Virus record (IMG/VR): IMGVR_UViG_3300048856_000125
Location: 1 to 42,725 of that record
Reading direction: 5' to 3' (one strand)
Origin: a virus
Taxonomy: Duplodnaviria; Caudoviricetes
DNA: 42,725 nucleotides
Of the stretch, positions 24,129-42,725 are shown one piece after another. Within the stretch, counting starts at the first letter, position 1. Every line of letters starts with the position of its first letter. Position numbers and translations under genes: made by a program. The notes beneath the pieces are model-generated. The model had not been told where the DNA came from. It saw only the letters and a program-made list of their open reading frames with translations, and did not search any database.

Positions 24129-24153
24129 CCCTTGTTCCACTTAAACCAACGGG

Positions 24154-24406: not shown

Positions 24407-24423
24407 TAAAGTGATGAGGCCAC

Positions 24424-25314: not shown

Positions 25315-25763
25315 GCTGCATTCCTTCCGTCGAAGAGTTCGCCTTGCGGCTCGCCGAAGACGCGGCAAGCTCTTTCCCAGATAAGCCCCACGAGGGCCGC
25401 GCGCTTGTTTGTGATGCCGTCCAGGCCGAAGCACCAGTATTGTAGCTTCCCGACCGGGATCGCGTCAAAGAAGCTCAGGAAGCGCGTCACGTCGTTCTCC
25501 ATGATCTCGGGATAGTTCTTCCGGAACGCCAAGACGATATCAGAGGTCGCCCATATACCGGTCTCATCGAGCGCCGCTCGGTTGTTGGCGCAGTCAGCTA
25601 AAGCCATGACGACAAACCGCGCATGGTCGGCTCCGTATTTACGGATGATGCGATGGAGGGTAGCAACCGCGCGAGTTTCGCCGACGGCCGGAACAACATT
25701 AGCCGGCACGACACGAATGTCGAACTCCGCAAAGATTCCCTCGGCCTCGGGGTGGTCGGTCAA
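25311..25763 (-). CDS. Hypothetical phage protein
   Basis: TTG start with GGAGGGG RBS; ETRAVATL motif; coupled to neighbours. Confidence 0.7.
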   Translation of the reverse strand: MTDHPEAEGIFAEFDIRVVPANVVPAVGETRAVATLHRIIRKYGADHARFVVMALADCANNRAALDETGIWATSDIVLAFRKNYPEIMENDVTRFLSFFDAIPVGKLQYWCFGLDGITNKRAALVGLIWERACRVFGEPQGELFDGRNAA

Positions 25764-25861
25764 TCCACACCCCTCCACACCCTGCCATGGGCGATGTTGC
25801 TGACCGTCAAAGGCTTGTTGTCCCCTCGCAGAGCCCTCACTAATGATTGTGCGGCACACGC

Positions 25862-25886
25862 GGAACGTTCTGGTTGCGACGCTGTT
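25862..25886 (+). promoter_or_regulatory. Putative sigma-EcfG/RpoE2 promoter
   Basis: GGAAC-N16-TGTT. Confidence 0.65.
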
Positions 25887-25918
25887 GGGAGCAGACGCAA
25901 ATCTTGATGGAGAAACAA

Positions 25919-26158
25919 ATGCGCGCGCTGAACCTTATCACCCTGCTTCTGGTCATCGTCGGTGGCCTCAACTGGCTGCTCGTCGGCCTTTTTCAATTCG
26001 ATCTCGTCGCAACCCTTTTCGGCGGCCAAGACGCAATGCTGTCGAGGATCGTCTACGTCCTGGTGGGCCTCTCTGCCATTTGGCAGTTGATCCCGTTCGC
26101 CAAGGCCATGTCGATCGGCGAGACGGCTGCAGAAGCTAACCTCCGCCATCACCACTGA
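25919..26158 (+). CDS. DUF378 small membrane protein
   Basis: LVIVGGLNWLLVGLFQFDLVA.LFG....LSRIVYVLVGLSA signature. Confidence 0.92.
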   Translation: MRALNLITLLLVIVGGLNWLLVGLFQFDLVATLFGGQDAMLSRIVYVLVGLSAIWQLIPFAKAMSIGETAAEANLRHHH

Positions 26159-26223
26159 ACGCCGGTGTTGCTTGATCTCGACCGCCGGCGCGATGGTGCC
26201 GGCGGACGCGTTGTCTATCGTGC

Positions 26224-26544
26224 TCATGCCTCCACCCTCACCCTCTCGACCTCGACGACCTTCCCGCCACCTCGGAATAGCTTCCGCTCCGCAGCCGCGA
26301 ACTTGGCCTGCCTTACGGTAACAGTACCATCCTCGAACTTCTCGCCCCTTATCTCGCGACCGTTCATGAATGCCACCAGGTGCTTGAGGCACTCCTCCGC
26401 CGCCTCGCCCTTGGTTTGGAAGACCTTGGGTTTTTTCCCCTTATCCATGACAGGCTCGGGGTGGCTATTGCGGCAAAGCCTGATCATCGCCCAGAAGCCA
26501 AACCCGCCGGGGATGCGGTGAGGATAGGCACTGTACTTGTTCAT
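26224..26544 (-). CDS. Hypothetical phage protein (MNKYSAYPH...)
   Basis: 106 aa; ATGA-coupled at both ends. Confidence 0.75.
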   Translation of the reverse strand: MNKYSAYPHRIPGGFGFWAMIRLCRNSHPEPVMDKGKKPKVFQTKGEAAEECLKHLVAFMNGREIRGEKFEDGTVTVRQAKFAAAERKLFRGGGKVVEVERVRVEA

Positions 26545-26574
26545 GCTGCGGCTCCCGTCGAAACGAGGAGCCAG

Positions 26575-26600
26575 GGAACTATGACAGCGCTGCGGGAATT
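26575..26600 (+). promoter_or_regulatory. Putative sigma-EcfG/RpoE2 promoter
   Basis: GGAAC-N17-AATT. Confidence 0.55.
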
Positions 26601-26636
26601 GAATAGCATCGGTGAACACTCGTAAGGCTGTCGAAC

Positions 26637-26861
26637 ATGCTTGCAAACCGTTGGAAGGAACCCGTGGTCATCCAAGATGGCCGTATCCGGATTACGCTCA
26701 CGTCGCCTGAAGAGGCCATCAATTGGCTGGCTCATGAACGCGACCAGAGGAGCGACAGATGGCGCCACGCTTGGCAGACATGCAGGGCCGTTCACGAGGG
26801 GCGCCTTCCTGCCGAAGAAGCAAGGTCCGCTGTTCAACTGGCTGCGCAGGGGAGACACTGA
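26637..26861 (+). CDS. DUF982 family protein no. 1
   Basis: WKEPVVI...TSPEEAINWL...A...C......AEEARSA pattern. Confidence 0.75.
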   Translation: MLANRWKEPVVIQDGRIRITLTSPEEAINWLAHERDQRSDRWRHAWQTCRAVHEGRLPAEEARSAVQLAAQGRH

Positions 26862-26914
26862 TAGCGCCCACCAGCGGCGGCCGGGGATCGGGTGTGCATA
26901 CCCGGAATACTTGT

Positions 26915-27808
26915 TCATTCGCTCCTCCAGCCTGACGCAATCGTCGCCGGCTCTAGTGGATGTGGGTCGAAGATGGGGGAAATCTGATGCCCTTGGGATT
27001 TGAGAGAGGCAGTGCCTACAACCGTCGCCAAGACATTCACGCGCGGTTCGGCGGCCAACAGCAGAGTGGCATCATCACACCGACGGGCGCCCCTGTGATC
27101 TTCATCATCAGCGGCAAGCGCGGCCTCGAGTATGGCTACGACGATCGCCAACATGCAGACGGCTTGATTGAATACTTCGGCGAAGGTCAGAAAGGCGACA
27201 TGACCCTCACCGGCGGCAACAAAGCGATTGCTGATCACCTCGCCAACGGCAAAACCCTGCTGTTCTTCGAGAAGGAATACCCGGCGCGGCACATCATCTT
27301 CAAAGATGAGATGATCTGCCAGGGCTGGCATTTCGAAGACGGACCGGACATCGCTGGGACGACGCGTAAGGCCATCGTTTTCGAGCTGCGCCCGCTCGAT
27401 TCCGTCGTGCATATAGCTGATGAGAACGTTTCTCCAGCGATCGGCAGTCTCGACGTCCTTCGCGCCCGCGCATTTGCCGCGGCTAAACCGTCGGTGTCCA
27501 GCACGACCGTCACAAGAAGCGTCTACGAGCGATCGGCCGATGTGCGCGATTACGTCCTGGCCAGATCGAAGGGCAGCTGTGAGGGCTGCGGGGTCGCTGC
27601 ACCTTTTTTGCGGACCAACGGTACACCCTACCTCGAGCCGCATCACATTCGCCGTGTCTCTGACGGCGGCCCCGATGACCCGCGGTTCGTGATTGCGCTT
27701 TGCCCGAACTGCCACCGGCGCGTCCACTTCGGCACCGACGGCGTTGGGTACAACACGACCCTGCTCTCGAAGATGAAGGCTGTCGAGGTCAATTAGCTGA
27801 GCTCTCAT
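26915..27808 (-). other. Bridge ORF C (297 aa) spanning the antisense SRA-HNH gene
   Basis: ATGA overlaps at 27805-27808 and 26915-26918; 894 nt without a stop. Confidence 0.55.
26987..27796 (+). CDS. SRA-HNH modification-dependent (McrA-like, type IV) restriction endonuclease
   Basis: N-terminal GGQQQSGI...YGY.D...YFGEGQKGDM...GNKAI SRA-like domain; C-terminal CEGC...YLEPHH...GGPD...LCPNCHRRVH. Confidence 0.85.
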   Translation: MPLGFERGSAYNRRQDIHARFGGQQQSGIITPTGAPVIFIISGKRGLEYGYDDRQHADGLIEYFGEGQKGDMTLTGGNKAIADHLANGKTLLFFEKEYPARHIIFKDEMICQGWHFEDGPDIAGTTRKAIVFELRPLDSVVHIADENVSPAIGSLDVLRARAFAAAKPSVSSTTVTRSVYERSADVRDYVLARSKGSCEGCGVAAPFLRTNGTPYLEPHHIRRVSDGGPDDPRFVIALCPNCHRRVHFGTDGVGYNTTLLSKMKAVEVN

Positions 27809-28635
27809 TTTCCGCACGCTCCAGCACAATCAGTCCCCATGAAGTCGAATTCCTGTTCGGCATCCTCGAGCTCAACGGCGCCCTCAACCGGCACCGGCGG
27901 GACGTACTGCCCCTTCTCGCTTTGGGCCCACTTCTTCACTTCATCGGCGCCAGCAGCCCCCATGTGGCGATGCGGTCGATACATCGTTTTCCCGACCTCG
28001 GCTTCCAAATCGCGGATCGCCTTCCAGTCATTGTCGGTGAACTGCCGCATGTCGTGCCGATTGCTGTTGATGCACCGGCATTCTCTGGATCGCGTAGGAA
28101 GCACCTCGAAGCCAGCACGCCGGATCAGAGCATTGCGGTCCTCGGCCGTGTATGTCGCGAAGGGCGCGAGCATGAAGCGCCCGCCATGGTTTTCGCTCTT
28201 GGCCAAATATTCCGGGAAGTTACGGCGATCTTCACTCTCTTCCCGCCGGACGCCTACGATACAGATTGCCCTCGCGTCTGGGTCATGCTGCTCAAGCCAC
28301 TGTTTGCCTGGCAGTATCTTGAGGATGTAACTGCACCACTGAAATTGCTGCGTAGGGAAGCCCTGCTTCTCGTGCGCCAGCTTCCGAAAGCCGATGCTCT
28401 TCGCCCTGTACGGGGTGAACATGAGCGAGCGCACCCACGCCTCGCATCGCTCAACCCGCTCTGCCCATCCATCGGCCATCCAGCCGGTATCGGTGAAGAC
28501 GCATGCCACGCCGTGCAGGTTGTTCTCGTGAGCCCACTGGACGAGAGCGATGCTGTCATTGCCGTAGCTGACGAAGATAACGAACCGGATCGGCGCATTC
28601 GCCCCTTGGTTGCGGAGGAGTTCGAGCTGCTGCAT
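27805..28635 (-). CDS. PAPS-reductase family (PP-loop) protein
   Basis: FVSYGNDS, DTGW, QWCS..LK..P, VGVRREES..R and RSREC.C motifs. Confidence 0.85.
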   Translation of the reverse strand: MQQLELLRNQGANAPIRFVIFVSYGNDSIALVQWAHENNLHGVACVFTDTGWMADGWAERVERCEAWVRSLMFTPYRAKSIGFRKLAHEKQGFPTQQFQWCSYILKILPGKQWLEQHDPDARAICIVGVRREESEDRRNFPEYLAKSENHGGRFMLAPFATYTAEDRNALIRRAGFEVLPTRSRECRCINSNRHDMRQFTDNDWKAIRDLEAEVGKTMYRPHRHMGAAGADEVKKWAQSEKGQYVPPVPVEGAVELEDAEQEFDFMGTDCAGACGK

Positions 28636-29015
28636 CAGAACAGCTCCTCTTTCACTGCCGGCGAAATAAAACGGACTCGTCTGCATCGGTCATGGTAGTG
28701 GTGATGGTCGCGGAGGCTTTCTCTCGACATGGCCGAGAGGAACATACCTTGGGCTCCATCATTGCTGTCGGCTTCGCCCTCGAATGGGAGCACCCGGTCT
28801 GCGTCCGAGACGGCGATATTCAGGACCGGTTGATCTTTGGCCCCCGAGCGGCTCTTAGATACCTTCAGGTTGATCTCACTGTGCGTTCCGGCCAAACCTA
28901 CTGGAACGCAGTTGCGGCCTGCACCTCGGCTTTGGTTTATGAAGCCGACCCGGACCACGCCCGAGACCTTTTCATCGCGGCCTACGCGGAATACATGGTC
29001 AACACTCGTCCGCAT
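28635..29015 (-). other. Bridge ORF D (126 aa) spanning antisense DUF982 no. 2
   Basis: TAATG overlap with the dnaB stop and TGATG overlap with the PAPS-reductase start. Confidence 0.55.
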
Positions 29016-29018
29016 TAG
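28692..29018 (+). CDS. DUF982 family protein no. 2 (start uncertain; TTG at 28749 possible)
   Basis: WEHPVCV...IFGPRAALRYL...YWNAVAAC..AL......ARDLFIAA pattern. Confidence 0.7.
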   Translation: MVVVMVAEAFSRHGREEHTLGSIIAVGFALEWEHPVCVRDGDIQDRLIFGPRAALRYLQVDLTVRSGQTYWNAVAACTSALVYEADPDHARDLFIAAYAEYMVNTRPH

Positions 29019-30460
29019 AACATCTCCTCTTGCGCCTTCTTAGGCTTCATGGATCGGTAGCGGGTGTATTCAGCCTCGAATTGAAGCGTCTCGCGGATAG
29101 TGGGATCGCCGAAGCGGACCTTCGCGGAGCCGATCTCGGCTATCCCCTCGATGTCGCCAACGAAGACTTTGTTGATCTTCTTCCAGTCGGAATCGCTGGC
29201 GGCGGTGGCTACGCGCTCGGCCTTGTATTTCTCGGGCCGGTAGAGCCACAGAATGGCGTCATAGTCGGCCTTGGCGCCCTCCCCGCCGTACAGGTCGGCG
29301 GCGATCGGCCGGGGATTGTCGCGACGGGTGCCGAAGCTGTTGCGCTGGTTCAGGATGAGGATCGACGACTGTGTCTCGTCGGCGAGCGCCTTGAGCTCGA
29401 CCGTTACCTCACCGGATATGCGGTCGGCCGAGAGCTTCGGATCGCGCGGCTTCACCTTGCCGATGTGGTCGATGACGATGAACGGCGTCTTGCCGTTGGC
29501 GCGCTTCTTGATGAACCGCCGGGCATAGGCGACGAGCTGCGACACCCCCTCCCGCTGGCAGCGGATGATGTCGAACGGCTGCTGGCCGATCCCGTGCGCG
29601 AACATCACGCACCGGTCCCGCTCGCTGTCGCTCATGAGCCGCATGGGCTCTCTCTGCTGCCGCACGCTGATCTCATGGACCTGGGCGATCATCTGCCGGA
29701 CGCACTGAGCCGCCGATTGGTCGTAGGAGAGGAATAGGACCGGGTGCCCCTCTTCCACCGCATGGTAGATGAGCTGCATCGTGAGGCTGGACTTGCCCTC
29801 GCCAGAGGATGACAGAAGGCCATATAGGTTGCCGGCCTCGAACACCGGCTCCGAAAGCACCTTGGCGATCTCCGGCAGTGCGATCGGCACGCCGATGACA
29901 CCCTGGCGCCGAGCCGATGCCTCGAACATGGAGAGATAGGAAGCGCCGGGCGAAGCGATCGACGTGGTCTCCCGGAAGCGGGCTTTCAGCTCCTTCAGAC
30001 GAGATTCCATGTGCTCGATCTCATCGGACAGCGTGAGGAGCGTATGGCCTTCCTGGGCTATCTCCGCGGCGATCTGAGCCTCTTTGGCAAGGTACCGGCC
30101 GAGAGAAACGCTCTTGATGATCTGGATCGCTCCCTCCAGCCCCCGCCGAGCAGTTGGATCAGTGCCCATCACCATCAGGCGAGACAGGTATTGGGCCGGC
30201 GAGACCACCAGCCTGTCGATCTGCTTTGGAACGAACGGCTTCAGCGATACCGCATTGACGTTCTGACCGCCGCGCCAGAGTTCGACCGACTCCTTAAAAA
30301 CGATCTGGTGAATAGGCTCGGCGAAATCCTCGGGCTCTAGGCCGCAATCCGTCAGGACTAAGTTGTCGGCCAGCATGCAGGCGAGGAAGAGCTCGGCAGC
30401 TTCGAAGGCATCGTCTTCCGTGATCCGGTCGAATGCATCTCTTTGGGAGTGGGCGTTCAT
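29015..30460 (-). CDS. dnaB: DnaB-like replicative helicase
   Basis: LEPEDF.EPIHQ N-terminal domain, SSSGEGKS Walker A, IVIDH, ELKALA, LNQ and YRPE.Y motifs. Confidence 0.9.
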   Translation of the reverse strand: MNAHSQRDAFDRITEDDAFEAAELFLACMLADNLVLTDCGLEPEDFAEPIHQIVFKESVELWRGGQNVNAVSLKPFVPKQIDRLVVSPAQYLSRLMVMGTDPTARRGLEGAIQIIKSVSLGRYLAKEAQIAAEIAQEGHTLLTLSDEIEHMESRLKELKARFRETTSIASPGASYLSMFEASARRQGVIGVPIALPEIAKVLSEPVFEAGNLYGLLSSSGEGKSSLTMQLIYHAVEEGHPVLFLSYDQSAAQCVRQMIAQVHEISVRQQREPMRLMSDSERDRCVMFAHGIGQQPFDIIRCQREGVSQLVAYARRFIKKRANGKTPFIVIDHIGKVKPRDPKLSADRISGEVTVELKALADETQSSILILNQRNSFGTRRDNPRPIAADLYGGEGAKADYDAILWLYRPEKYKAERVATAASDSDWKKINKVFVGDIEGIAEIGSAKVRFGDPTIRETLQFEAEYTRYRSMKPKKAQEEMF

Positions 30461-30591
30461 ATTGCGACCTCCCAAGACTGAACCTGTACCTGCCCCCTCT
30501 TGAACCGGAAAACGAGGCACCACAAATCAATTACGGGCGCTGAACCACAGCGCCTTCCTTGTTGATCACCAACGTTTTCAGTGAGGTAGAA

Positions 30592-30894
30592 ATGATCGCG
30601 AAGATGTTCGACAGACCCGTCTACTTGAAAGAGCGACGAGATCTGGTTCGAGAGATAAACTGCGTCGAAGACGCCATCGACTTTCTGGAGGATTGGCCGG
30701 AGCGTGACAAAGACCTCGACCATGAGGCCGCGCTGCGAACCTGCTACATGGCCCAAGACGGCCTGAAGCCGCTGCGCGTTGCTCGTGACGCGGTCCGGAG
30801 CTTCGGAGCCAAGAAGGGAATCCTCATGAAGGCGCCGGCGGTCCGGCCGTGGATGATCAACCGCCAGGCCGGCGGTGGCCACGTCATCTTCTGA
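30592..30894 (+). CDS. DUF982 family protein no. 3
   Basis: FDRPVYL...EI..VEDAIDFLEDWP...HEAALRTC...ARDA...F..KKGIL; GAGG RBS. Confidence 0.88.
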   Translation: MIAKMFDRPVYLKERRDLVREINCVEDAIDFLEDWPERDKDLDHEAALRTCYMAQDGLKPLRVARDAVRSFGAKKGILMKAPAVRPWMINRQAGGGHVIF

Positions 30895-30910
30895 GCGATC
30901 AAGCCAGTTG

Positions 30911-30939
30911 GAGAGGCTGCGAAAGCGGCCTCTCTTTTT
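30911..30939 (+). terminator. Strong intrinsic terminator of DUF982 no. 3
   Basis: GAGAGGCTGC-GAAA-GCGGCCTCTC-TTTTT. Confidence 0.88.
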
Positions 30940-31433
30940 GCGAGCGCTTAAGTTTCTGACCATCGCAACGCGTTCGCAGAACTGCAGAACGAGCGCTGGC
31001 GAGTTGTCGCGGAAAAGCTGCTCGTATCGGCCGATGCCTTCGAGAAAAGCTGACCGAACAATGATAGCGCACCCTATACGGCTCGTCTCCAATGCGCGCT
31101 CCACAAAGCGGTCGGCGAGCGTGAACGGCGGGTTTGTGATCGTCCAACCGACTTGCTCGATTTGGTAAGGGAACAAGAAGTCCTCAATCGCCCAGCCATA
31201 GCCGTAGTCCGCGATATCGCTGGCCTTCACATCGGCAAAGTATTCTTGGAGCGGACGGACCATGAAACCCCGATTGGCCGCAGGCTCACGCACAGTCGCC
31301 GCCAAAAGGTCATGTCCATGCTGCTGCAGCGCCTCGCAGAGAGCACGCGTAGCCCATGGAGGCGTGGGGAAGTCGTCAAGCGAACGCTTCGGCTCGCTGC
31401 GTTGCTGCATCACGGCTGAGGAAGTGTTCTGCC

Positions 31434-32111
31434 TCATGCCGCGCTCCTCTTCTGCTCGTAGGCACCGGTGCGCAGGTCGAGGAACCGCCGCTGCATCCAG
31501 TCGATTTTGGGAACGTCGCATTTGTGCCAGCAGGTGCAGATGCCAACGGCTTCGGCTGCGTCTCTCTGTTCTGCCTTGGTACGGGGAAGCTGGATGCCCT
31601 CGCGCTCGCAGGATTCGATCGCAGCGGCCTTCCAATCATCCTTCCAAACGAGGTTGCCGCGTTTGTCCCGAACCTGCTGGCCTTTGTTCATCACCGGTAT
31701 CCGAGGGGGTACAAATCCCTTACCGAAGAAAACAGGCCTCCAAGAATTTGCCGCGACAGTTCCAAAGGGAACCTTCATCATCATGCAGATGGCGGTAATG
31801 GCGCCGGCAATACCAGTGAGTTGAAGGGCTGCCGGGTTGATGGTGGAAACCACCTGCTCTTCCCCGGTCAGGTCCGCCTTGCCCTTCTTTCGGAACTGCC
31901 GGACGCCATGTTCAGGACGCTCGATCGCGACGAAGTCGGGAGCGTGTTCCTTCACTAATCGATAGAAGAGATTCGCCGCAACGGGGTATTTTTCTTCCCA
32001 AACGTACTCTTTGACGGAAAAGATTCCGCAGCGGATGGAGGAGCGATGGCGGGCACTATCGCGGACAGCCCAGCCGGAAGTGGTTGCGAGGTCGAGACCC
32101 ATGATGATCAT
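31434..32111 (-). CDS. RuvC-like Holliday junction resolvase
   Basis: IMGLDLATTSGWA, PDFVAIE and DAAEAVGI acidic catalytic motifs. Confidence 0.78.
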   Translation of the reverse strand: MIIMGLDLATTSGWAVRDSARHRSSIRCGIFSVKEYVWEEKYPVAANLFYRLVKEHAPDFVAIERPEHGVRQFRKKGKADLTGEEQVVSTINPAALQLTGIAGAITAICMMMKVPFGTVAANSWRPVFFGKGFVPPRIPVMNKGQQVRDKRGNLVWKDDWKAAAIESCEREGIQLPRTKAEQRDAAEAVGICTCWHKCDVPKIDWMQRRFLDLRTGAYEQKRSAA

Positions 32112-32461
32112 TGCCGCGCCTCCGTCGGGATGAGACGCCATTGGGCGAGTTCTCCGGAGCCGCCTTTCGAGCCGGTCACGGTCCAGCCGAAGGGCTCGAT
32201 CTTCCGGCGAAGCTGGCTCACCATCACCTTGATGACCGTATCGCCCTGCTCCGGCCCGCCATCCTGACGGCCGCCGTACATGCGGTGCATGATGCTATCC
32301 CGCCGGATAGGCGCCCGGACCTTCTTGGAGAGCATGTCGAGAATGAGCCGCTGACCGGGTGCCGTGACGTACTCGCGAACTTGATCGATCGGCGCGGCTT
32401 CTCCGATGAAGCCACCGCAACAAGGGCAAGTGAATGTCTGGATTTTTGGAATGACGTTCAT
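32108..32461 (-). CDS. Winged-helix (OmpR/PhoB-type) DNA-binding protein with a CPCC knuckle
   Basis: MYGG..DGGPE....IKVMVSQLRRKI motif. Confidence 0.75.
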   Translation of the reverse strand: MNVIPKIQTFTCPCCGGFIGEAAPIDQVREYVTAPGQRLILDMLSKKVRAPIRRDSIMHRMYGGRQDGGPEQGDTVIKVMVSQLRRKIEPFGWTVTGSKGGSGELAQWRLIPTEARQ

Positions 32462-32545
32462 TGCTTCACCAGGGGAAAGAAAGACCCGAGCATTCGCGCT
32501 CGGTAGTTTGGCGGCCCAAGGGAGGAGGATGGCCGCCGCGGTGGA

Positions 32546-33106
32546 TCAGTGGGCGGTGTCGCCAGCGTCGGCGAAGGGATCGCCGTCCGAGGGCGGTTCT
32601 TCCTTCGAGTTTGCGGCTTCGATCCGCGCCATGATGTCGGGGATTTCCGTCTCGTATTCCTTCTTCCCGGCGTCGTAAGACTCGAGCCAGAGCGTATCGT
32701 CGGAGGAGCCTGCGTCGTATCCGGAGACGCGATCGAGGTTCAGGAGACCTGCCTTGTAGCCCTTGGCCTGGATGAGTTGCTCGCCATCGACGCGGTCAGC
32801 TTGCATAAGCAGATCGCCGCCGCTGGTCGCCGGGATGAAGCCGAGCCACTCCAGGTTTTCACGGTCGGACTTGAGCCGATCTACCGGCTTCTGCTCGTCC
32901 TCTCCGAAATGGGCTTGGAGATAGTGATCAAACTTCTGGCCGGTGAAGGTGGGGTCAGCGGCTTTGGCTACCTTGCGGTTCGCCGTCTTCTCTGCCGCTG
33001 CCTCCCGGCGCTTTGTTTCGGCTGCCAGTTCCTTCCGGAAGTGGTAGGCGAACAGCTTCTGCCGTTCGGCATCCGAGAGCTTGGTGTTGCTTCCTGCGGT
33101 GGGCAT
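32546..33106 (-). CDS. Hypothetical phage protein with a C-terminal RMF-like GY.AG...WL..Y..G motif
   Basis: Start MPTAGSN; KGYKAGL...WLESYDAG. Confidence 0.65.
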   Translation of the reverse strand: MPTAGSNTKLSDAERQKLFAYHFRKELAAETKRREAAAEKTANRKVAKAADPTFTGQKFDHYLQAHFGEDEQKPVDRLKSDRENLEWLGFIPATSGGDLLMQADRVDGEQLIQAKGYKAGLLNLDRVSGYDAGSSDDTLWLESYDAGKKEYETEIPDIMARIEAANSKEEPPSDGDPFADAGDTAH

Positions 33107-33184
33107 TGTTGTTCCCTGGTTGTCGGAAAAATCCGAAGGTTTCGGACACAAAAACGGACGCCCGTTGAGGCGCCCTATTTCAGC

Positions 33185-33559: not shown

Positions 33560-33616
33560 TTTCGAATTTCCCTGTGCAACTAATCCGGCGTGGCCAGGGT
33601 CAAGGTTTGAAAGGAA

Positions 33617-34794: not shown

Positions 34795-35021
34795 GCCGCC
34801 GTCTCCGGCTGGGGCAGAAAGTCGTCCGCGGAAAGCTCGACCGCGCGTTCCTTGGCTGCAGCCAGCAAAGCGGGCGCATACCTGAAGGGGATAAGCCCGC
34901 CGGTGCCGCCGTCTTCCTTTCGGCGCATCCAGTTGGAAACTCGCGTGCGATGCGCCCCGGTGATCCGGGACACTTCCGATGGGCCTCCGAGGGCGTAGAT
35001 GATGTGCTTTGCAGGTTCCAT
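34791..35021 (-). CDS. cro: Cro-like repressor
   Basis: 76-aa HTH (II..LGG..EV......RVSNW...GGTGGLIP), divergent from cI. Confidence 0.8.
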   Translation of the reverse strand: MEPAKHIIYALGGPSEVSRITGAHRTRVSNWMRRKEDGGTGGLIPFRYAPALLAAAKERAVELSADDFLPQPETAA

Positions 35022-35028
35022 GCCTTTT

Positions 35029-35105
35029 TGTATCGATTATAGATACACAAAGCAAGAGGCTTGTATCGATAACAGAAACAGACGTGCGTATCGATTATCG
35101 CTACA
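35029..35105. promoter_or_regulatory. OR-like operator triplet between cro and cI
   Basis: 19-bp imperfect palindromes (consensus TGTATCGATwATCGATACA) at 35029, 35062 and 35087. Confidence 0.85.
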
Positions 35106-35114
35106 TTCAAGCAC

Positions 35115-35756
35115 ATGAAAGATTGGGTAATTTCAGCGCTGCAGTACTCGGGCATGAGCCAAGCCGACTTGGCTCGCGAGCTGGCGGAAAATTTTAAGTG
35201 GTCGGATAACCGGTCGATCCTGAACAAGATCGTGAAGGGAGACCGTGACCTGAAGGCGGACGAGATGTTCGATATCTCGCGCGCCACAGGATATCCGATC
35301 CCGGCCGGCATCGTAGCGGAGGCCTCGGTACCTCTTGTCGGCTATATCGGCGCTGGCGCTGAGATCATGCCAGAGTTTGAGCAGGTACCGCCGGAAGGCT
35401 TGGACCAGATCCATGTACCGTTTCCCCTTCCTGGCGACATGATCGCTTTCGAGGTCCGGGGCGATTCCATGCTCCCGGTCTACAAGGACGGCCATGTCGT
35501 GATCGTTTATCGCGAGCAGAAAAAGCCGGTGACGTCGTTCTATGGCGAGGATGCCGCAGTCCGCACCAGTGATGGGCGGCGGTTCTTGAAGACAATCATG
35601 AAGGGCACGCCCGTTACCCTAATGTCGTTCAACGCGGCGCCAATCGAGAACGTCGCCTTGGAGTGGATCGGGGAAATTTTCGCTGTGATGCCGAGGACGC
35701 AGCTCAAGAAGGTTGAGCGTTCCGGAGGCCTACAAGGGAGCTTGAAGCTGGCGTGA
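35115..35756 (+). CDS. cI: CI-like repressor (HTH plus S24 autopeptidase)
   Basis: MSQADLAREL HTH; VGYIGAG cleavage region; EVRGDSM catalytic Ser; RFLK catalytic Lys. Confidence 0.92.
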   Translation: MKDWVISALQYSGMSQADLARELAENFKWSDNRSILNKIVKGDRDLKADEMFDISRATGYPIPAGIVAEASVPLVGYIGAGAEIMPEFEQVPPEGLDQIHVPFPLPGDMIAFEVRGDSMLPVYKDGHVVIVYREQKKPVTSFYGEDAAVRTSDGRRFLKTIMKGTPVTLMSFNAAPIENVALEWIGEIFAVMPRTQLKKVERSGGLQGSLKLA

Positions 35757-35971
35757 CACCTGAACGCTTCAACCAGTGCCTTCGCGTGATCCGGTGGACG
35801 CCGATCAACATTGCGTCGGCGCTCCAATGCGAGCTGTCGTGGATCGAGGCGCTTGAGGCGGGGAACGAGGAAGTGCCGACGGGTCTCGCTGCCTGGCTCG
35901 AAGTTCTGGCGCAAGTTCATGAGGCCGCACCGCCGCCGAAGACGTACCGCAGCAAGAGGGCAACTGAATGA
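35753..35971 (+). CDS. Small HTH-like hypothetical protein co-transcribed with cI
   Basis: GTGA overlap with the cI stop; 72 aa. Confidence 0.7.
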   Translation: MTPERFNQCLRVIRWTPINIASALQCELSWIEALEAGNEEVPTGLAAWLEVLAQVHEAAPPPKTYRSKRATE

Positions 35972-36721
35972 AAGACGGCCCACCGGGTGACCGACCGAAA
36001 TCGGTAGCAATCAGCATAGATGGTGCCTCGGATGTTACCATTTCGAACGTTGCCGTCCGGGGTTTTGATGTTGCTATCTCCGCGAGAAAAGTTAGGAATC
36101 TCAAAGTCAATGACCTCTCTTATCAGGGCTCCGGACGGGCCTATGACATAACTGGTGAGTCTGCCGAGATCACCGGAACGAGAGCGACATCGGTTGGAAC
36201 GTCACGCGGGAGAAGCCAAGTCGGCTACTTCAAGCCGAATGGGCCACCGCTCCCCGCCCAGTGCCCAAACTGCAAGAGCGTTTTCCCATCTCGCCATAGG
36301 CGCGGCAGTTTCTGCCCTGCCGGCTAGTGGGAACAAGGAAAATATCGACGCGGCAATCAATAAGATTGCTGAGGTATCCCCTGGCGCTGGAAAAGTTTTA
36401 AAAGCTAATGCGTGGACGACTGTCGCCGCTTTTCTGGTCGGGTTCGCTGCGGTTCTAGCAGGCTTGAATGATGGCTATGATGTCTACGAAAAATATGAGG
36501 TCCGCGACAAGCTATCTCTGCTCTACCAGGCGATGTCAAAGATAATCGTGAAGCCGGTTAGCAGCCATGAGTATCATGTCGATCACCCCAAGGGCGACGA
36601 ACATCCTAGGACAAGTCAAGACCGCAGCGGGAATTTGAGAACGTATCGCGACCGTCTCAACAATTCGACGTCGATACCATCTAATATTCCCGTGCCGATC
36701 CCGAGACCGCGCCGCCCATGA
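35968..36721 (+). pseudogene. Apparently split/frameshifted immunity-region gene (beta-rich N-terminus with CPNC; C-part with a TM helix)
   Basis: Overlapping ORFs 35968-36327 and 36155-36721; protein-like sequence changes frame near 36295. Confidence 0.45.
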
Positions 36722-36885
36722 GGCGACCGGTAACACGATAGCGACCGGAACTCTTGCAGAGCGTTCACTCATGAGCCTTACTGTAAGCGCTCTTCGTAGA
36801 TCTTCCACCCTTCTAACAACTCCCCTCAGCGCAAGAATCTCTGAGAGAAGATAACTCTTTCCGTATTTCAGCCTTTCCGTATCTC

Positions 36886-36931
36886 GTATGACAGCCATGT
36901 CATAGGTGGGTATGACAGCCATGTCATAGGT
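36886..36931. repeat. Tandem pair of palindromic 22-mers with a 24-bp period
   Basis: GTATGACAGCCATGTCATAGGT at 36886 and 36910; each contains TATGACA-N4-TGTCATA. Confidence 0.9.
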
Positions 36932-37220
36932 CAAGGCTGTAGACGCTGGATCGCCCCGGCTGCCGGCGCACCCTCACCCACTCCTCGTCCTCAAGCTCTT
37001 TCAGTGCCCTGGCAACATGCCGGGTAGATATGCCGAGCGCTTTACCGATCGTGTTCATTGCCGGATAGCAATAAGGCTTCTTCGCGCTCAGCCGCAGCGC
37101 CAGATGGAAGCCGACGAGCTTGGCGTTTCTGCTAACAAACTCATTCGCGACAAGCATCCTCATCCACGCATCTCTGCGCTTCAGCCACCGGCCTGTTTCC
37201 AACTTAACTTGCTGATCCAT
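36924..37220 (-). CDS. Winged-HTH protein (replication-initiator-type HTH_36)
   Basis: AKLVG..L......CYPAMNTIGKALGISTRHVARALKELEDEEWV.....G....Y.L. Confidence 0.8.
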   Translation of the reverse strand: MDQQVKLETGRWLKRRDAWMRMLVANEFVSRNAKLVGFHLALRLSAKKPYCYPAMNTIGKALGISTRHVARALKELEDEEWVRVRRQPGRSSVYSLDL

Positions 37221-37238
37221 GCCACAGGCATAAACCTC

Positions 37239-37315
37239 CGTATCGGAAACCGCAACAGATTTGTATCGATTTTCGCTACAGTACTCTTGCGCGTGATTTC
37301 GATTTTCGATACAAC
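37239..37315. promoter_or_regulatory. OL-like operator triplet with PL-like promoter
   Basis: 19-mers at 37239, 37262 and 37295 matching the OR consensus; TTGCGC-N17-TACAAC at 37287-37315. Confidence 0.8.
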
Positions 37316-37409
37316 ATCCTCATTAGCCGCCCCGAACACCTCGCAAGAGAAGCTCCGACGGGACGGCGCCAGCGGGCCGAGTACCCGCGCAGAGTTGAGG
37401 ATGGGGAAA

Positions 37410-37631
37410 ATGGCATTCGTTACGCGCTACCACATCACTGACGATCAGGGCCGCATGTGGAACGGCGAAGACTTCTCCTGGGATCGAGACATGGCGGATG
37501 AATACCGCGAGCTCGACGAGGCAGAAGAGGATGCGGCCAAACTCGGCGGCTTCGTCGAGGAATTCACCCGCGCCAATCGCTTCGGCGACCTTCCCCGCCT
37601 TGCGAACCAATTCCAGATCGCGGCGGAGTGA
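37410..37631 (+). CDS. Acidic hypothetical protein, first gene of the PL-like operon
   Basis: MAFVTRYHITDDQG...; RBS present; alternative start at 37401. Confidence 0.7.
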   Translation: MAFVTRYHITDDQGRMWNGEDFSWDRDMADEYRELDEAEEDAAKLGGFVEEFTRANRFGDLPRLANQFQIAAE

Positions 37632-37852
37632 CGGCAATGAAGCAGCCCGAAATGACCACGGCCGCTATGCAGGCCCACGAAATCGGCAGGCAGTTCGAAG
37701 CTGCACGCCTTTTCGCAGACAAGCACGACGATGCTCTGGCTTGGGACGTGAAATACCACGAGGCAGCAGCCCGCCAGACGTTTGAAAGCCTTGCCGATCT
37801 TCTCGGATACCGCGTCGAGCGCATCGAGCTGGTACAGAGGGCCTCGTTATGA
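37628..37852 (+). CDS. Hypothetical protein
   Basis: Coupled to neighbours. Confidence 0.65.
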   Translation: MTAMKQPEMTTAAMQAHEIGRQFEAARLFADKHDDALAWDVKYHEAAARQTFESLADLLGYRVERIELVQRASL

Positions 37853-37983
37853 GCAAGCACACTCCCGGCCCTTGGACTTTCCGCACCGGCGCCCGCATCG
37901 CCTTCTCATTCCTCGCCTTCGGGCTTCCAGAACAGCAGCGGCTCGACCGCGAAAATCAGGAGATTGTCTATCATGGCCGTTGA
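37849..37983 (+). CDS. 44-aa mini-ORF starting MSKHTPGPW (possible in-frame deletion chimera; not in the ORF track)
   Basis: ATGA-coupled start; common phage N-terminal HTPGPW motif; stop overlaps the next gene. Confidence 0.55.
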   Translation: MSKHTPGPWTFRTGARIAFSFLAFGLPEQQRLDRENQEIVYHGR

Positions 37984-39046
37984 AGCCCAGCAGCTCGCAA
38001 CGATCGTCGACCCTGCCATCATTGAACGTTGGGAATGGTGGCGCACGGCGCTGAAGAAGCCGTCGACGATCGGCTCGAACGATCTTCCGGTTCACCCGAA
38101 CGAATACCAGCTCGGATACTACCGCACCCGCCGCAAGGATGGCGATTGGGAGCCGGTGGGCATCTACCCCGACGAGGATGGCAGGGTGCTCGGCTTCCGC
38201 AATGGAAAGCCTGTCGACGACCTGGTGAACCTCTTTCAGTGGTCGTGCCGGGATCCAATCGAGTATCAGGCCTATGTCGACGCGTTGGATGGCAAGGGCT
38301 GGGCTGATGAGCCTGCTCGCGGAACGATCGGCCATAACCTGCCCGACGATGCCGATCCCTTCGACGCCTTGAACCTTGAGTTCCTTGGCGAAAAGGAACA
38401 GGCGGAAGCCTTCCTCAAGGAGAAAGTCACCACCCAGGCACAAGCCGATAAGGTTGGCATCTGGGCGAAGCGCCTCACCTCGATCAAGTCGAAGGCCGAA
38501 GGGCTTCATAAGGTCGAAAAGCAGCCGCATCTCGACGCCGGCCGCGCCGTCGACAACAAGTGGCGGGAACTCAAGGAAGAGCCCGACGCCCTAGCCAAGA
38601 AGCTCAAGGCGCACATTCAGCCGTTCCTTTCGGCCAAGCTTCGCGAGGAGCAGGAACGCGCGCGGAAGGCAGCAGAGGAAGCCGAGCGCCTCCGCCGGGA
38701 AGCAGCAGCAGCCGGCGCCGAGGCCGCTAAGGCCAAGTCAGAAGAGCAATCAGTCGAGGAGTTCAACAAGGCGCAGGAACAGCGTGCCGAGCTCCTCCGC
38801 CAGGCGCAGGAGGCAGAAAAGGCCGCTGAAGTCCGTAATGCAACCGCCGGCCGAACCGGCTCGCGTGTCGGTATCCGGACTGAAAAGGTGGGCCTCGTCA
38901 CCGACTACCAGAAGGCCGCAGCGGCTCTCGTGACCATGCGGAACAAGGACATCATCGAAATCATCGACAAGCTTGCACAGCGGGCCGCTAAGGCCGGCAT
39001 GCCCTTCGACGGCATGGAAGTGCGCGAAGAGGAGAAGGTCGTCTAA
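37973..39046 (+). CDS. Hypothetical coiled-coil protein of the recombination module
   Basis: 357 aa; IGHN and EKQPHLDAGRAVD motifs; upstream of bet. Confidence 0.8.
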   Translation: MAVEAQQLATIVDPAIIERWEWWRTALKKPSTIGSNDLPVHPNEYQLGYYRTRRKDGDWEPVGIYPDEDGRVLGFRNGKPVDDLVNLFQWSCRDPIEYQAYVDALDGKGWADEPARGTIGHNLPDDADPFDALNLEFLGEKEQAEAFLKEKVTTQAQADKVGIWAKRLTSIKSKAEGLHKVEKQPHLDAGRAVDNKWRELKEEPDALAKKLKAHIQPFLSAKLREEQERARKAAEEAERLRREAAAAGAEAAKAKSEEQSVEEFNKAQEQRAELLRQAQEAEKAAEVRNATAGRTGSRVGIRTEKVGLVTDYQKAAAALVTMRNKDIIEIIDKLAQRAAKAGMPFDGMEVREEEKVV

Positions 39047-39909
39047 TGAACGCGATCGCAAAGACCGAAGCCGCCCCGCGTCAGTCGCTCATCGCGACGA
39101 TGGCTGCCAAGTTCAACATGGAGCCGAAGGCCTTTGAGGCAACTGTACGCTCCACCGTTATGCCGGCGAACCACACCAATGAGCAGTTTGCGGCTCTGAT
39201 GATGGTAGCCAAGGAGTACGACCTCAACCCGCTGCTGAAGGAAATCTATGCCTTCCCAGCTAAGGGCGGCGGCATTGTGCCGATCGTGTCAATCGACGGT
39301 TGGGTTAACCTCGTCAACTCGCACCCAGCTTGCGATGGCTTCGAGTTCGAATTCGAGCATGCAGAGGATGGAACGCTCATCTCCTGCACCTGCCGGATGT
39401 TTCGTAAGGATCGCGGCAGGCCGGTGACCGTCACCGAATACCTCGTCGAATGCATTCGCAATACCGATCCGTGGAAGATGAAGCACCGGATGCTTCGGCA
39501 CAAGGCGATGATCCAGGCAGCGCGCTATGCATTCGGCTTTTCTGGCATCTACGATGAGGATGAAGGATCCAAAATCGCGGAGATGAAGGACGTCACGCCT
39601 CCGAAGCCGCCGGCACCTCCTGCCCCACCGGCTCCTCCGAGCGAAGCCGCGCCCGAGCCCGCCACATCGAACGAACCTGAGAACGTCATTGAGGGCGAGA
39701 TCGTCGAGACCGCCGGTGGCGAAGAGGACTTCAATCCCACTGAGTTCTTCGAGGCCCTGGAAGCAGAAATGGCTCAGGCGAACACCATGGAAGATGTGGA
39801 GGAGGTTTGGACCGCTCGCGATCCACTCGCCGTCTTTGATGGTGACGACCAGAACCAAGCCATTGCGAAGGCGATCAAGAACCGTCGCCTGAAGGAAATC
39901 GGAGGCTGA
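39046..39909 (+). CDS. bet: Red-beta / Bet single-strand annealing protein
   Basis: YDLNPLLKEIYAFP, IVSIDGW and PW...RMLRHKAMIQAARYAFGFSGIYDEDE motifs. Confidence 0.93.
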   Translation: MNAIAKTEAAPRQSLIATMAAKFNMEPKAFEATVRSTVMPANHTNEQFAALMMVAKEYDLNPLLKEIYAFPAKGGGIVPIVSIDGWVNLVNSHPACDGFEFEFEHAEDGTLISCTCRMFRKDRGRPVTVTEYLVECIRNTDPWKMKHRMLRHKAMIQAARYAFGFSGIYDEDEGSKIAEMKDVTPPKPPAPPAPPAPPSEAAPEPATSNEPENVIEGEIVETAGGEEDFNPTEFFEALEAEMAQANTMEDVEEVWTARDPLAVFDGDDQNQAIAKAIKNRRLKEIGG

Positions 39910-39910
39910 T

Positions 39911-40741
39911 ATGTCGAAGGGCGATTTCCCCGCACTCCGCATGGTAGTTGATGGAGGCCGGCTCACCCCGGCCACCCCGTTCGACGCCGAGCGCTTGAAC
40001 AGCTACCGCCGCGGCACCGTCGTGTTCTGCAAGTTCACCGAAGAGAGAGACCGCGTTCTCGTCCGCAAGTGGTTTGCCGTTCTTGGGCTTGTCATCAAGC
40101 AGTGCGACACTCCATGGAAGAACAAGGAAGAGGCCCACGAGGCCATCAAGCTCGCACTCGGCATCGTGAACCTGTCTAAGACAGTGAGCGGCCAGTGGAT
40201 GCAATATCCGAAGAGCCTGACCGAGCTTGCCGATCCAGAATTGCAGGAAGCGCTCGAGCAGATGATCGAGTTGCTCAGCCGTATGACAGGCGTTGACGTC
40301 GAGACGCTCCGGAAGGAAGCCGCCGATGTCGGCCGTGAAATCGAACAACCCAATTCCGACGAGCAGTCCCCTCCCTCGTCGGATACCGTCGAAGATGTTT
40401 CCCCGTCTTCGACCGCAGCGGGCGAGAAAGCTGATCCCCCTCCGTCCTCGCCCGCTGCCACCCTTTCCGACGCCCATTGGCTGAATATCGCCGCACGGAT
40501 GCTCTGGGCAGCGACGCACGTCACCGGCGACACCGACACCGACCTGCAGGTCCTCAACAACCAGAGGCTCGCTGTGGGCGATCTGGATGCGAACCCGTCA
40601 CAGCCTGCCAAGGACAAGGCCGGCTCGATCTATCGCCAGTGCAAGGCCGTGGTCATGTCAGAGGTTGAACGGCCGATCGCACTCAAGTTCATCGCGAACA
40701 TGGCCGGCATGGAAAAGAAGGATTTGGAGGTGTCAGCATGA
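39911..40741 (+). CDS. Hypothetical protein of the recombination module
   Basis: 276 aa; GGAGG RBS. Confidence 0.75.
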   Translation: MSKGDFPALRMVVDGGRLTPATPFDAERLNSYRRGTVVFCKFTEERDRVLVRKWFAVLGLVIKQCDTPWKNKEEAHEAIKLALGIVNLSKTVSGQWMQYPKSLTELADPELQEALEQMIELLSRMTGVDVETLRKEAADVGREIEQPNSDEQSPPSSDTVEDVSPSSTAAGEKADPPPSSPAATLSDAHWLNIAARMLWAATHVTGDTDTDLQVLNNQRLAVGDLDANPSQPAKDKAGSIYRQCKAVVMSEVERPIALKFIANMAGMEKKDLEVSA

Positions 40742-40971
40742 GCCGCTTTGAAGACACTATGTCCCAGAGCCGCTCGATGGCAGCCGTCAACATGATGCGG
40801 GATACGGATAAGTTCGTCCGCCGGCTCTACCAGTCGCGCCAGCCGCTCGGCACCGCCAGCGAAGCGTTGGAGCGGCACATGCTCGCGGAAGGGCTCGTCT
40901 ACCGGAAGGAAGGGCCGTTGCTCCGCCTAACGCCGAAGGGCAAGGAACACGCGCGGGAGATCGGAGCATGA
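40738..40971 (+). CDS. Small hypothetical protein (winged-helix-like)
   Basis: ATGA-coupled; LRLTPKG wing motif. Confidence 0.65.
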   Translation: MSRFEDTMSQSRSMAAVNMMRDTDKFVRRLYQSRQPLGTASEALERHMLAEGLVYRKEGPLLRLTPKGKEHAREIGA

Positions 40972-41363
40972 GCCGTTCCGTTCCAGAGTGGCGCGGCAAG
41001 ACCGACGACGCCAAAATCCCCGATCGCGTCAAGGTCCGGATTCTCGAACGCGAGAACTTCACCTGCTACCTCACTGGCCAGAAGATCGACCCTCTGCGGG
41101 ATGAATTCGACTTTGATCACAAGGTGGCTCTGATCCTTGGCGGAGAGCACCGAGAGTTCAACCTGTTCCCTGCTCTTCGATCTGCCCACCGCAAGAAAAC
41201 GGCCGTCGAGATGGGCGTAAAATCCAAGATCGCTCGGGTGAAGAAAAAGCATCTGCTCGGCAGGCCGAAGTCCTCACTCTCTCATCCGAAGCTGAAGCGC
41301 CTGATGGATGGCACAGTCGTGAACCGTGACACGGGCGAAATCATAGGAGGCCGCAGGCCATGA
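40968..41363 (+). CDS. HNH endonuclease
   Basis: FDHKVALILGGEHREFNL......H..KT. Confidence 0.8.
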   Translation: MSRSVPEWRGKTDDAKIPDRVKVRILERENFTCYLTGQKIDPLRDEFDFDHKVALILGGEHREFNLFPALRSAHRKKTAVEMGVKSKIARVKKKHLLGRPKSSLSHPKLKRLMDGTVVNRDTGEIIGGRRP

Positions 41364-41698
41364 CCACTACCGCTATTGCAGTGACGGATGAGATGGTGGA
41401 GGCAGCGCAGACTGAGTTTACCAAATTCGGGTACACTGCCTCAAACGAGAAGGCCCTTCGCCACGCCCTCTCCGCCGCCCTACAGGTAGCAGAGAAGGCA
41501 GAGGCCCCACCGCCCCAGACACATTTGGCGGGGAGAGGCGATACCTCCATCCTCCGCGAGCGTATCTCGCGAGCCATCTTCGATCCTGGACAGACTGGAT
41601 ATAAGGACGACCGGACCCTTACGGACTGGCAAACAGATGCCGTCATGCGCGTTCTTGGGTTTCCCGCCCTCGCCACCACGGAGGGCTCGGCAAAATGA
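41360..41698 (+). CDS. Hypothetical phage protein
   Basis: VTDEMVEAA motif; coupled at both ends. Confidence 0.65.
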   Translation: MTTTAIAVTDEMVEAAQTEFTKFGYTASNEKALRHALSAALQVAEKAEAPPPQTHLAGRGDTSILRERISRAIFDPGQTGYKDDRTLTDWQTDAVMRVLGFPALATTEGSAK

Positions 41699-41703
41699 GC
41701 AAC

Positions 41704-42012
41704 TTAAGCCGTACCCCCAGCACTCCCCTGGCCGCCTTCATCGACCCATCGGTCGAGGGCTCCCATTCGCACCTGGGCAGGAGTATCACCTCCTTCCTCA
41801 GCACCTTTCCCTCGTGCATTGAGGGCGGCGATGAGGTCACTTTCAGAGTCTTTCCCGTTTCGGAACAACCTCATGAGAAACGTTGCCGCTTCCTCTGTCT
41901 CGCTGTCACCTACCTGAGATGCAGGACCATAGTAGCCTGCTCGCTCGAGCACGCGCTCCAGCATATCGATGTCGGCTATTTCGAGATATTCGTGAACAAT
42001 GTTGGAAGACAT
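41704..42012 (-). CDS. Antisense moron, hypothetical with an ALDRWVDEGG motif
   Basis: AGGAGGA RBS; 102 aa. Confidence 0.75.
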   Translation of the reverse strand: MSSNIVHEYLEIADIDMLERVLERAGYYGPASQVGDSETEEAATFLMRLFRNGKDSESDLIAALNARGKGAEEGGDTPAQVRMGALDRWVDEGGQGSAGGTA

Positions 42013-42138
42013 GATCGTCCTCCTTTCGTTGGGGCGAAGGCATTTAGCCCTTACGCGATGGCGCCCGCTTCAAATGCCATCGACAGTTTGACTGTGCGCC
42101 TTAAGCTACCACTAAGCAAGATGTATTACGGGCTCCAG

Positions 42139-42291
42139 CTAACGCCTGGCTGGCTCCCCTTCGCTAGGTTCAGTCGCCGACTTGTTGGCCGCCCTATCAC
42201 CCGGATGGTCCTTGTCCTTTCCCGGGTTTTCATAGGGCTTCTGAACAGGCTTATTTTCGTCCTGCCGCTCTTGGTTCTGATTGTCTGGCAT
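42139..42291 (-). CDS. Antisense moron, 50-aa hydrophilic protein
   Basis: GAGGAGG RBS; MPDNQNQERQDENKPVQKPYENPGKDKDHPGD... Confidence 0.7.
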   Translation of the reverse strand: MPDNQNQERQDENKPVQKPYENPGKDKDHPGDRAANKSATEPSEGEPARR

Positions 42292-42327
42292 GTACTGCCT
42301 CCTCGCCGCGGAGTGCGACATAGAGCC

Positions 42328-42352
42328 AACACGCGAGACATCGGATCGTTCC
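42328..42352 (-). promoter_or_regulatory. Putative sigma-EcfG/RpoE2 promoter
   Basis: Minus strand GGAAC-N16-TGTT. Confidence 0.65.
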
Positions 42353-42440
42353 GCGATTACCATGCGCCCCAACCGAGGGAGGTGGGTAGCGCCGCTGTGG
42401 ACAATACCGCCGCGGATAGTGGGGAAAGCGGTGGAAGCCG

Positions 42441-42725
42441 ATGAGCATCAGACGGCCATCAATAATTCCATCAGGCAGTTGGCCGCCTCGCATGATGGCC
42501 GACCTGGCTGCCGCCTATTGCGGGGAGAGGCATGTGGAAGACTTCCTCGAGCGGGTTGGCTCAACGTATCCGCTGCCGCGGGTGATTGACACAACCCGTC
42601 GAAAGTTTTGGTATCGGGACGATCTGGACCGCGCGATGAATATCGGCGGGACAGAGCGTCCCTCGGGAATGGGAGCAGCCTTCCGTGACAAGGTCAGGGA
42701 AAAGCGGAACGGTAGAATTGCCTAA
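42441..42725 (+). CDS. Excisionase-like protein
   Basis: WPPRM.ADLAAAYCGE...YP.P.......WYRDDLD; last gene of the PL-like operon. Confidence 0.7.
   Translation: MSIRRPSIIPSGSWPPRMMADLAAAYCGERHVEDFLERVGSTYPLPRVIDTTRRKFWYRDDLDRAMNIGGTERPSGMGAAFRDKVREKRNGRIA

Follow-up and report, generated by a model that had tools for sequence, protein, structure and literature searches.

We analyzed a 42,725-nucleotide (nt) stretch of viral DNA (IMG/VR record IMGVR_UViG_3300048856_000125, in its entirety "the window"), which is a temperate phage whose nearest relatives reside in Rhizobium, Neorhizobium, and Pseudorhizobium genomes, and whose genes, including terminase, portal-type, and helicase genes, identify it as a DNA phage. 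The annotated phage collection contained no close cultured phage, the top helicase matches being below 30% identity. Our main finding is that accessory genes (morons) inserted backward into the early operons of this phage group are spanned, on the operon strand, by stop-free open reading frames (ORFs), which we call bridges and which are joined to the phage genes on both sides. These bridges are real and under selection, and from their layout we infer a mechanism based on uninterrupted translation.

The original prediction, made from the DNA letters alone, was that the window contains six such bridges, and this is borne out: all six ORFs are free of stops at the coordinates listed in Table 1, and each is joined to both neighbors. 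The junctions are ATGA at both ends of bridges 2, 3, 5, and 6, ATGA (5') and TTGA (3') for bridge 1, and TAATG (5') and TGATG (3') for bridge 4. As also predicted, 7/7 morons are in exact codon register with their own bridge; the stop codon of DUF982 no. 2 (29016–29018) falls just beyond bridge 4, whose start is at 29015. The morons are genuine genes, since three belong to DUF982, one to DUF378, and one to HNH by Pfam, while 41704 and 42139 have same-length relatives. They display gene-like conservation, promoter-like motifs, variable presence, and insertion between phage genes. On the minus strand, the genes and bridges from 32461 to 24691 form a chain without break, with 12 consecutive junctions at −4 or −1. 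Since bridges 2 and 3 are joined to each other, the six cassettes are not fully independent, a condition that the odds given in the prediction had presupposed.

How general this organization might be was examined in 45 loci fetched with the helicase (8 duplicates were dropped); loci are referred to by L numbers throughout. Early chains were followed starting at the resolvase and ending with the last early gene; the window was included, and two decayed prophages (L040 and L045) and one near-duplicate were left out. Of the 278 junctions in these chains, 249 are at −4 or −1. Most apparent gaps hold mini-ORFs of 6 to 29 codons that are coupled at both ends. Gaps that are real occur in L023 (113 nt, preceding a forward gene), in L025, where a gene is frameshifted, and in L029. 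Most natural gaps of these operons measure about 80 to 90 nt. Mini-ORFs fill gaps of 16 to 85 nt in L005, L008, L013, L015, L016, L023, L029, and L030, mostly flanking the helicase, and one of 28 codons recurs in four phages. Bridges are also found in the left early chains of L177, L198, and L158.

We used DUF982 as a test family because it can be found without regard to bridges and has many copies in rhizobial genomes. Inside early right operons, a profile built from Pfam-confirmed copies found only backward copies. In prophages with an intact helicase, 26/26 copies lie within a frame open across the gene, 25/26 are joined at both ends, and the reverse ORF is codon-aligned in 25/26; the cassette at 9317 in the intact prophage L043 uses a non-aligned frame that is still open. 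In the two decayed prophages, 8/9 copies are open, but most neighboring genes are broken and coupling could not be cleanly scored. In a hold-out set of loci fetched by the portal gene (13 matches, 4 of them already known), all nine new DUF982 copies have both joins. Where two DUF982 genes stand in tandem, they are in the same register (5/5 pairs). Junction register among related prophages, which the prediction had proposed as a check, is therefore far from random.

As controls, we took 60 of 159 DUF982 matches from ten host genomes and kept 44 after removing duplicates and copies in the same or similar prophages. Some antisense frame is open in 26 of these and the aligned frame in 22, but none is joined at both ends. 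Openness alone, already considered weak evidence in the prediction, was therefore discarded. With matched flank lengths, the 44 controls give a null expectation of ~0.03 per cassette for a frame that is open and in register, which is lower than the 1/9 originally estimated. No aligned stop is present in 24/25 phage copies, compared to 25/44 controls (Fisher p = 3e-4), at a GC content of 0.59 vs. 0.60. Some of the many rhizobial DUF982 copies, such as the L307 control, may be prophage remnants, which would make this test conservative. In host genomes, DUF982 and DUF378 genes cluster together with residual bridges and pieces of phage DNA at L307 (G001:C3), L064, L067, and L072 (G005:C92). DUF378 was rejected as a control family because its copies are short and mostly open, and an apparent double join in L314 proved to be an ordinary operon gene. 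All-against-all ORF clustering was too noisy to split genes from shadow ORFs and was replaced by anchors, a codon model, and Pfam.

Outside the morons themselves, the bridge frame has no stop in the 953 non-coding codons of 20 cassettes, whereas 58 stops occur in the 1,823 codons of the remaining two frames (indel-length tests in these parts were unreliable where alignments were poor). As predicted, the frame thus remains open through promoters and intergenic DNA, and it also runs through the likely terminator of DUF982 no. 3, a hairpin followed by a T-run. Inside the morons, the signal lies in TTA, CTA, and TCA, the three codons that create stops in the aligned frame. Nine complete homologues of the SRA-HNH moron (32 to 77% identity to that of the window) contain none in 2,467 codons, vs. 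17.6 expected from native phage codon rates, with a broken tenth copy (L035) left out. Other A-ending codons are commoner in these genes than in native genes (19% vs. 13%). Depletion of these codons was another proposed check, and it recurs in 26 aligned DUF982 genes, which were chosen as aligned, with 0 vs. 19.4 expected. A comparison with SRA-HNH genes outside phages failed, since all 3 copies found in 300 genomes sat in phage contexts. Substitutions between homologous cassettes fall mostly at moron third positions, bridge peptides are 27 to 44% identical where the morons are 47 to 78% identical, and unrelated cargo at the same sites comes with unrelated bridges. Except for the methyltransferase part of bridge 5, no Pfam or PHROG match was found in bridges. 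These findings show that the frame is maintained open while the bridge peptide shows no sign of conservation, and they uphold the claim that selection holds the frame open and in register.

The ends of bridges have a different origin. They often correspond to heads or tails of native genes, as in bridges 1, 2, and 4 and in L009, where the end of one bridge resembles that of the resolvase. This suggests that recombination supplies the start and the stop, and that register and openness, rather than the creation of junctions, are what selection works on, which amends the prediction, correct as to the junctions themselves. The cassette of DUF982 no. 3 is found in the window, L028, L071, and L284 with differing junction pairs, each of which preserves the frame. 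In L284 the methyltransferase is intact and the bridge is a distinct ORF behind it, whereas the window lacks 170 nt that include the methyltransferase/bridge junction, and this deletion puts the methyltransferase, which has lost ~50 C-terminal residues, in frame with the bridge. Bridge 5 is thus a secondary fusion, and it provides an example of the chimeric ORFs that had been foreseen.

The bridges would most likely permit uninterrupted translation, so that expression reaches the genes behind the cargo through re-initiation by coupling together with shielding from Rho; that they are translated is inferred from the sequence. Cargo would enter by recombination between gene junctions, and only open, in-register alleles would be kept. 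After re-initiating at the start of the bridge, a ribosome would translate across the antisense cargo and terminate over the start codon of the gene that follows. Its arrival there would free an initiation site that is otherwise occluded, and Rho would find no long stretch of unprotected RNA. The bridge would use the codon-aligned frame since this is the only one from which silent changes in the cargo can clear every stop, a property described for ambigrammatic viruses (PMC6884476). Ribosome-binding sites at bridge starts are as strong as those of native coupled starts, with a median of −8.5 kcal/mol vs. −2.2 for internal ATGs. Late morons can probably do without a bridge, since the late transcript would be shielded by a Q-like regulator. 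The scan of late operons covered 147 of 181 candidate clusters by Pfam, of which 24 matched; leaving out 5 weak or doubtful ones and adding 6 window genes gave 25 late morons. None of these is bridged between genes, the aligned frame being open in 4/25, and the six in the window are without any single bridge. Four short ORFs (26, 25, 45, and 17 residues) at window positions 17254–17611 (−) cross the late moron 17389–17604, probably by chance. The sigma-region-4-like fold of the last early gene (24691–25314), as judged by structure comparison, fits an antiterminated late transcript without proving it.

The original claim that bridging is restricted to early operons therefore stands for this phage group but not beyond it. 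In L304, another phage, an SRA-HNH gene among head/neck-type genes is bridged, which suggests that the rule follows the needs of the transcript rather than the label "early." In L296, the locus of one of the 25 late morons, a 699-residue head-morphogenesis-like ORF (15978–18077, +) runs in frame across a backward 346-residue helix-turn-helix (HTH)/nuclease gene (16983–18023, −), which is either a dual-coding insert in a late gene or an intron-like element.

Several observations weigh against this translation-based reading. The expectation that every early insertion is bridged holds for nearly all DUF982 copies but has exceptions. The sole non-joined copy (L043 4670) has no 5' join and abuts a rearranged region, and two joins in other DUF982 cassettes are at −8 and −14. 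Only 7/9 SRA-HNH genes are joined at both ends, L303 and L305 being joined at the 3' end only. In L029 (8910–10004), a backward gene with a weak pentapeptide-repeat match is frameshifted and its bridge is broken too, which reflects either decay or an assembly error. Some cassettes are related by descent, and our counts therefore exceed the number of independent events, which is ~20 to 25 for the DUF982 copies. Downstream genes have strong Shine-Dalgarno sites of their own (median −8.0 kcal/mol). Predicted occlusion is higher for starts behind bridges than for uncoupled starts (13.0 vs. 9.7 kcal/mol), which favors a need for coupled re-initiation, but the control is small (42 vs. 10 starts, the 10 being related to each other). 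Bridges are C-rich (C/G 1.09 vs. 0.98), but only slightly, and 3/6 window bridges are not. Three gaps upstream of the unbroken chain in the window are untranslated (57, 78, and 84 nt). Two of them contain terminator-like hairpins, which may mean that an early antiterminator exists, and this would weaken the Rho step. The match of gene 24691–25314 is middling, with Z 6.0 to Q in 6jnx (97 aligned residues, root-mean-square deviation 3.5) and Z 6 to 7.2 to sigma region 4, and Foldseek gave no match for it at E 0.001. Finally, two RNA runs consist of unstranded contigs that cannot show bridge transcription, and the higher depth over the DUF378 region in one of them was set aside as no evidence of expression.

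The main rival to uninterrupted translation, which we judge improbable, is that bridge ribosomes mainly shield the lytic messenger RNA (mRNA) from decay or from antisense pairing with moron RNA (cleavage of RNase E or RNase III type), with coupling and Rho being secondary. In 20/31 cassettes, no more than 30 nt separate the moron stop from the bridge start. A terminator would hardly fit there, and moron RNA is therefore likely to overlap the lytic mRNA, with moron transcription perhaps continuing, in antisense, into the lytic gene upstream. Antisense RNA is known to control sieB in P22 (PMC12197685). Morons also carry promoter-like motifs. A scan for sigma-70 promoters found no more sites than in shuffles, whereas 12 of 28 regions upstream of morons carry a GGAAC...GTT motif 23 to 39 nt before the start, shuffled sequences giving 0.8, with a pattern that was tuned after the data had been seen. 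By this sequence criterion, the morons that bear it are likely stress-sigma genes expressed in the lysogen. The sigma factor would be RpoE2. The available passages of PMC2651895 do not give the motif. Shielding of mRNA does not account, however, for the near-constant overlap of the bridge stop with the start of the following gene, or for the coupled mini-ORFs in cargo-free gaps.

Even less probable is that bridge peptides are functional overprinted proteins and that the frames are kept for their products. The strong ribosome-binding sites, bridges as long as 300 to 540 codons, and the retention of most of the methyltransferase domain in bridge 5 would fit, but recognizable domains are missing apart from that one, bridge 3 has a single database homologue, substitutions track moron silent sites with low bridge identity, and unrelated cargo yields unrelated bridges. 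Least credible, and already largely refuted, is a by-product in which recombination at junction look-alikes gives start and stop for free and GC-rich codon bias opens the aligned antisense frame: it would account for the copied native gene ends and for the open frames among controls, but given start and stop only about 3 in 100 cassettes would be open and in register (vs. 25/26 and 9/9), GC content was matched, three specific codons are missing, the frame is open outside coding DNA as well, and GC-bias shadow ORFs would end at random rather than on the starts and stops of neighbors.

With slightly more doubt than conviction, we extend uninterrupted translation to a broader proposal: an early antiterminator protein would be absent from these phages, and the design of the genome would take its place, the early mRNA being translated without interruption and backward cargo being admitted only where its antisense strand offers a coupled open frame. 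A PHROG search of the early genes recognized no N-like gene, which does not exclude one, and the hairpins at 33156–33175 (−) and 32486–32503 (−), both inside the early right operon, may point to an unrecognized early antitermination system. If the proposal is true, SRA-HNH and DUF982 become ambigrammatic cargo families, and thousands of expressed, unconstrained peptides and fusions such as bridge 5 are raw material for new genes.

In integrons, ORF-11 acts as a relay by translational coupling. Bridges have the same relay geometry, with a start over the upstream stop, a stop over the downstream start, and a ribosome-binding site. In Gifsy-1 orf45-anrP, translation of the upstream ORF is needed for the next gene (PMC4825925). 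Such known relay ORFs concern a single locus and, in the available parts of that source, are not described as the antisense of a functional gene, whereas bridges are dual-coding, 100 to 540 codons long, and a recurrent cargo rule. The nearest analogues are ambigrammatic narnaviruses, which have a long stop-free codon-aligned reverse ORF without homologues that must be intact, and whose authors suggest that translation of the reverse ORF itself may matter (PMC6884476, PMC8316113). Bridges appear to work alike, with a codon-aligned reverse ORF and a specific absence of TTA/CTA/TCA beyond codon bias, but are not members of that type. Narnaviruses are eukaryotic RNA viruses with one ORF over nearly the whole RNA-dependent RNA polymerase segment, whereas in this DNA phage many short bridges are made anew over unrelated cargo, run through promoters, and are joined to both neighbors.

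Ribosomes engaged in translation keep Rho from intragenic sites, genes downstream fall silent when translation is lost, and lambda Q suppresses polarity (PMC12360218). Known phages, as far as this source covers them, use a protein against Rho polarity (N, Q, or Psu), whereas here continuous translation over foreign DNA would serve. Backward morons such as sieB of P22 and lambda are independently transcribed accessory genes antisense to lytic genes, and the accessible text describes antisense RNA control and own promoters but not a coupled open frame across the moron (PMC12197685, PMC7067206). Long antisense ORFs embedded in annotated bacterial genes have been proposed to be functional and under purifying selection (PMC8850804, PMC9927249), whereas bridges are defined by their junctions and lack peptide conservation. 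The literature searched, which covered few subscription and older phage papers, contained no account of bridged morons. We thus regard bridges as a variant on known principles (coupling, polarity, and ambigrammatic coding) that comes close to a class of its own, the combination as a cargo rule not having been found in print.

This points to a general, unnamed constraint on accessory-gene uptake by temperate phages, in which ribosomes moving along the opposite strand apparently shape the silent positions of the cargo. Bridges provide a bacterial test case of whether selection can favor the translation of an ORF irrespective of what it encodes, and they bear on how translation guards transcription in alphaproteobacteria. 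They also offer a tangible way for new proteins to arise, bridge 5 being a fusion in the making. They are further a warning for annotation, because long coupled ORFs mimic genes and can hide a real gene on the opposite strand.

Table 1. Bridges, morons, and neighboring features of the window
Feature	Position	Strand	Evidence and remarks
Last gene of coupled chain, sigma-region-4-like HTH protein, likely Q-like late regulator	24691..25314	-	Structure comparison (see text)
Native gene phrog_22699	25311..25763	-	PHROG; TTG start overlaps bridge 1 stop
Bridge 1, 155 codons	25760..26227	-	Final 44 nt 91% identical to tail of native HTH/HNH-type gene in L028
Promoter-like motif of DUF378 moron	25862..25886	+	GGAAC...GTT, extracytoplasmic function (ECF) sigma type
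DUF378 moron	25907..26158	+	PF04070, E 4e-26; bridged homologue in L259
Conserved native gene between bridges 2 and 1	26224..26544	-	
Bridge 2, 125 codons	26541..26918	-	First ~20 codons resemble start of next native gene
Promoter-like motif of DUF982 no. 1	26575..26601	+	GGAAC
DUF982 moron no. 1	26637..26861	+	PF06169, E 2e-8
Bridge 3, 297 codons	26915..27808	-	Database homologue at 45%
SRA-HNH moron	26960..27796	+	PF01844; phrog_15103; PADLOC mREase_IV, E 8e-20; SRA is the label of the original prediction
Native PAPS-reductase-family gene	27805..28635	-	
Bridge 4, 126 codons	28635..29015	-	Tail repeats helicase tail (EELF vs. EEMF, then stop-ATG)
DUF982 moron no. 2	28692..29018	+	PF06169, E 2e-7; true start uncertain; stop overlaps helicase stop/bridge ATG
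DnaB-like helicase	29015..30460	-	
Bridge 5, 326 codons	30457..31437	-	N-terminal ~160 codons of DNA methyltransferase (phrog_799, residues 5-162) fused in frame to bridge
DUF982 moron no. 3	30592..30894	+	Pfam; DNA 92-93% identical in L028 and L071, 92% in L284
Hairpin and T-run after DUF982 no. 3, likely terminator	30911..30939	+	Seen by eye; absent from hairpin scan list
RuvC-like resolvase	31434..32111	-	phrog_159
Terminator-like hairpin	32486..32503	-	In 84-nt untranslated gap directly before unbroken chain
Native gene upstream of bridge 6	41360..41698	+	
Bridge 6, 249 codons	41695..42444	+	Tail resembles same-position tails in L177 and L158
Moron, 102 residues	41704..42012	-	Same-length relatives, 65-89% identity
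Moron, 50 residues	42139..42291	-	Same-length relatives, 72-94% identity
Promoter-like motif of 42291 moron	42328..42352	-	GGAAC...GTT
Last gene of left early chain, likely excisionase-type	42441..42725	+	Assigned from position; no family match

Some of the cargo is likely to serve in defense. The HNH part of the SRA-HNH moron resembles type IV methyl-directed restriction enzymes, which suggests a likely anti-phage role from sequence similarity. Two very long bridges in relatives also span likely defense cargo, L009:11437–13050 (537 codons) with SRA-HNH and a second gene, and L028:11446–12771 (441 codons) with a weak AbiZ match. At L009:14209, the gene after the bridge apparently starts with CTG in a CTGA overlap, and L264:5104–5415 (+) is a bridge-like ORF over a backward 99-residue gene, directly after a Q-like gene. 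Elsewhere in the window, between the last early gene and terminase (21400–24600), small genes in both directions lie outside any coupled chain, including one for an acyl-carrier-protein-like product (phrog_5934, 23468–23734). In the immunity region, a short direct repeat (36884–36932) beside the HTH gene 36924–37220 is a possible operator.

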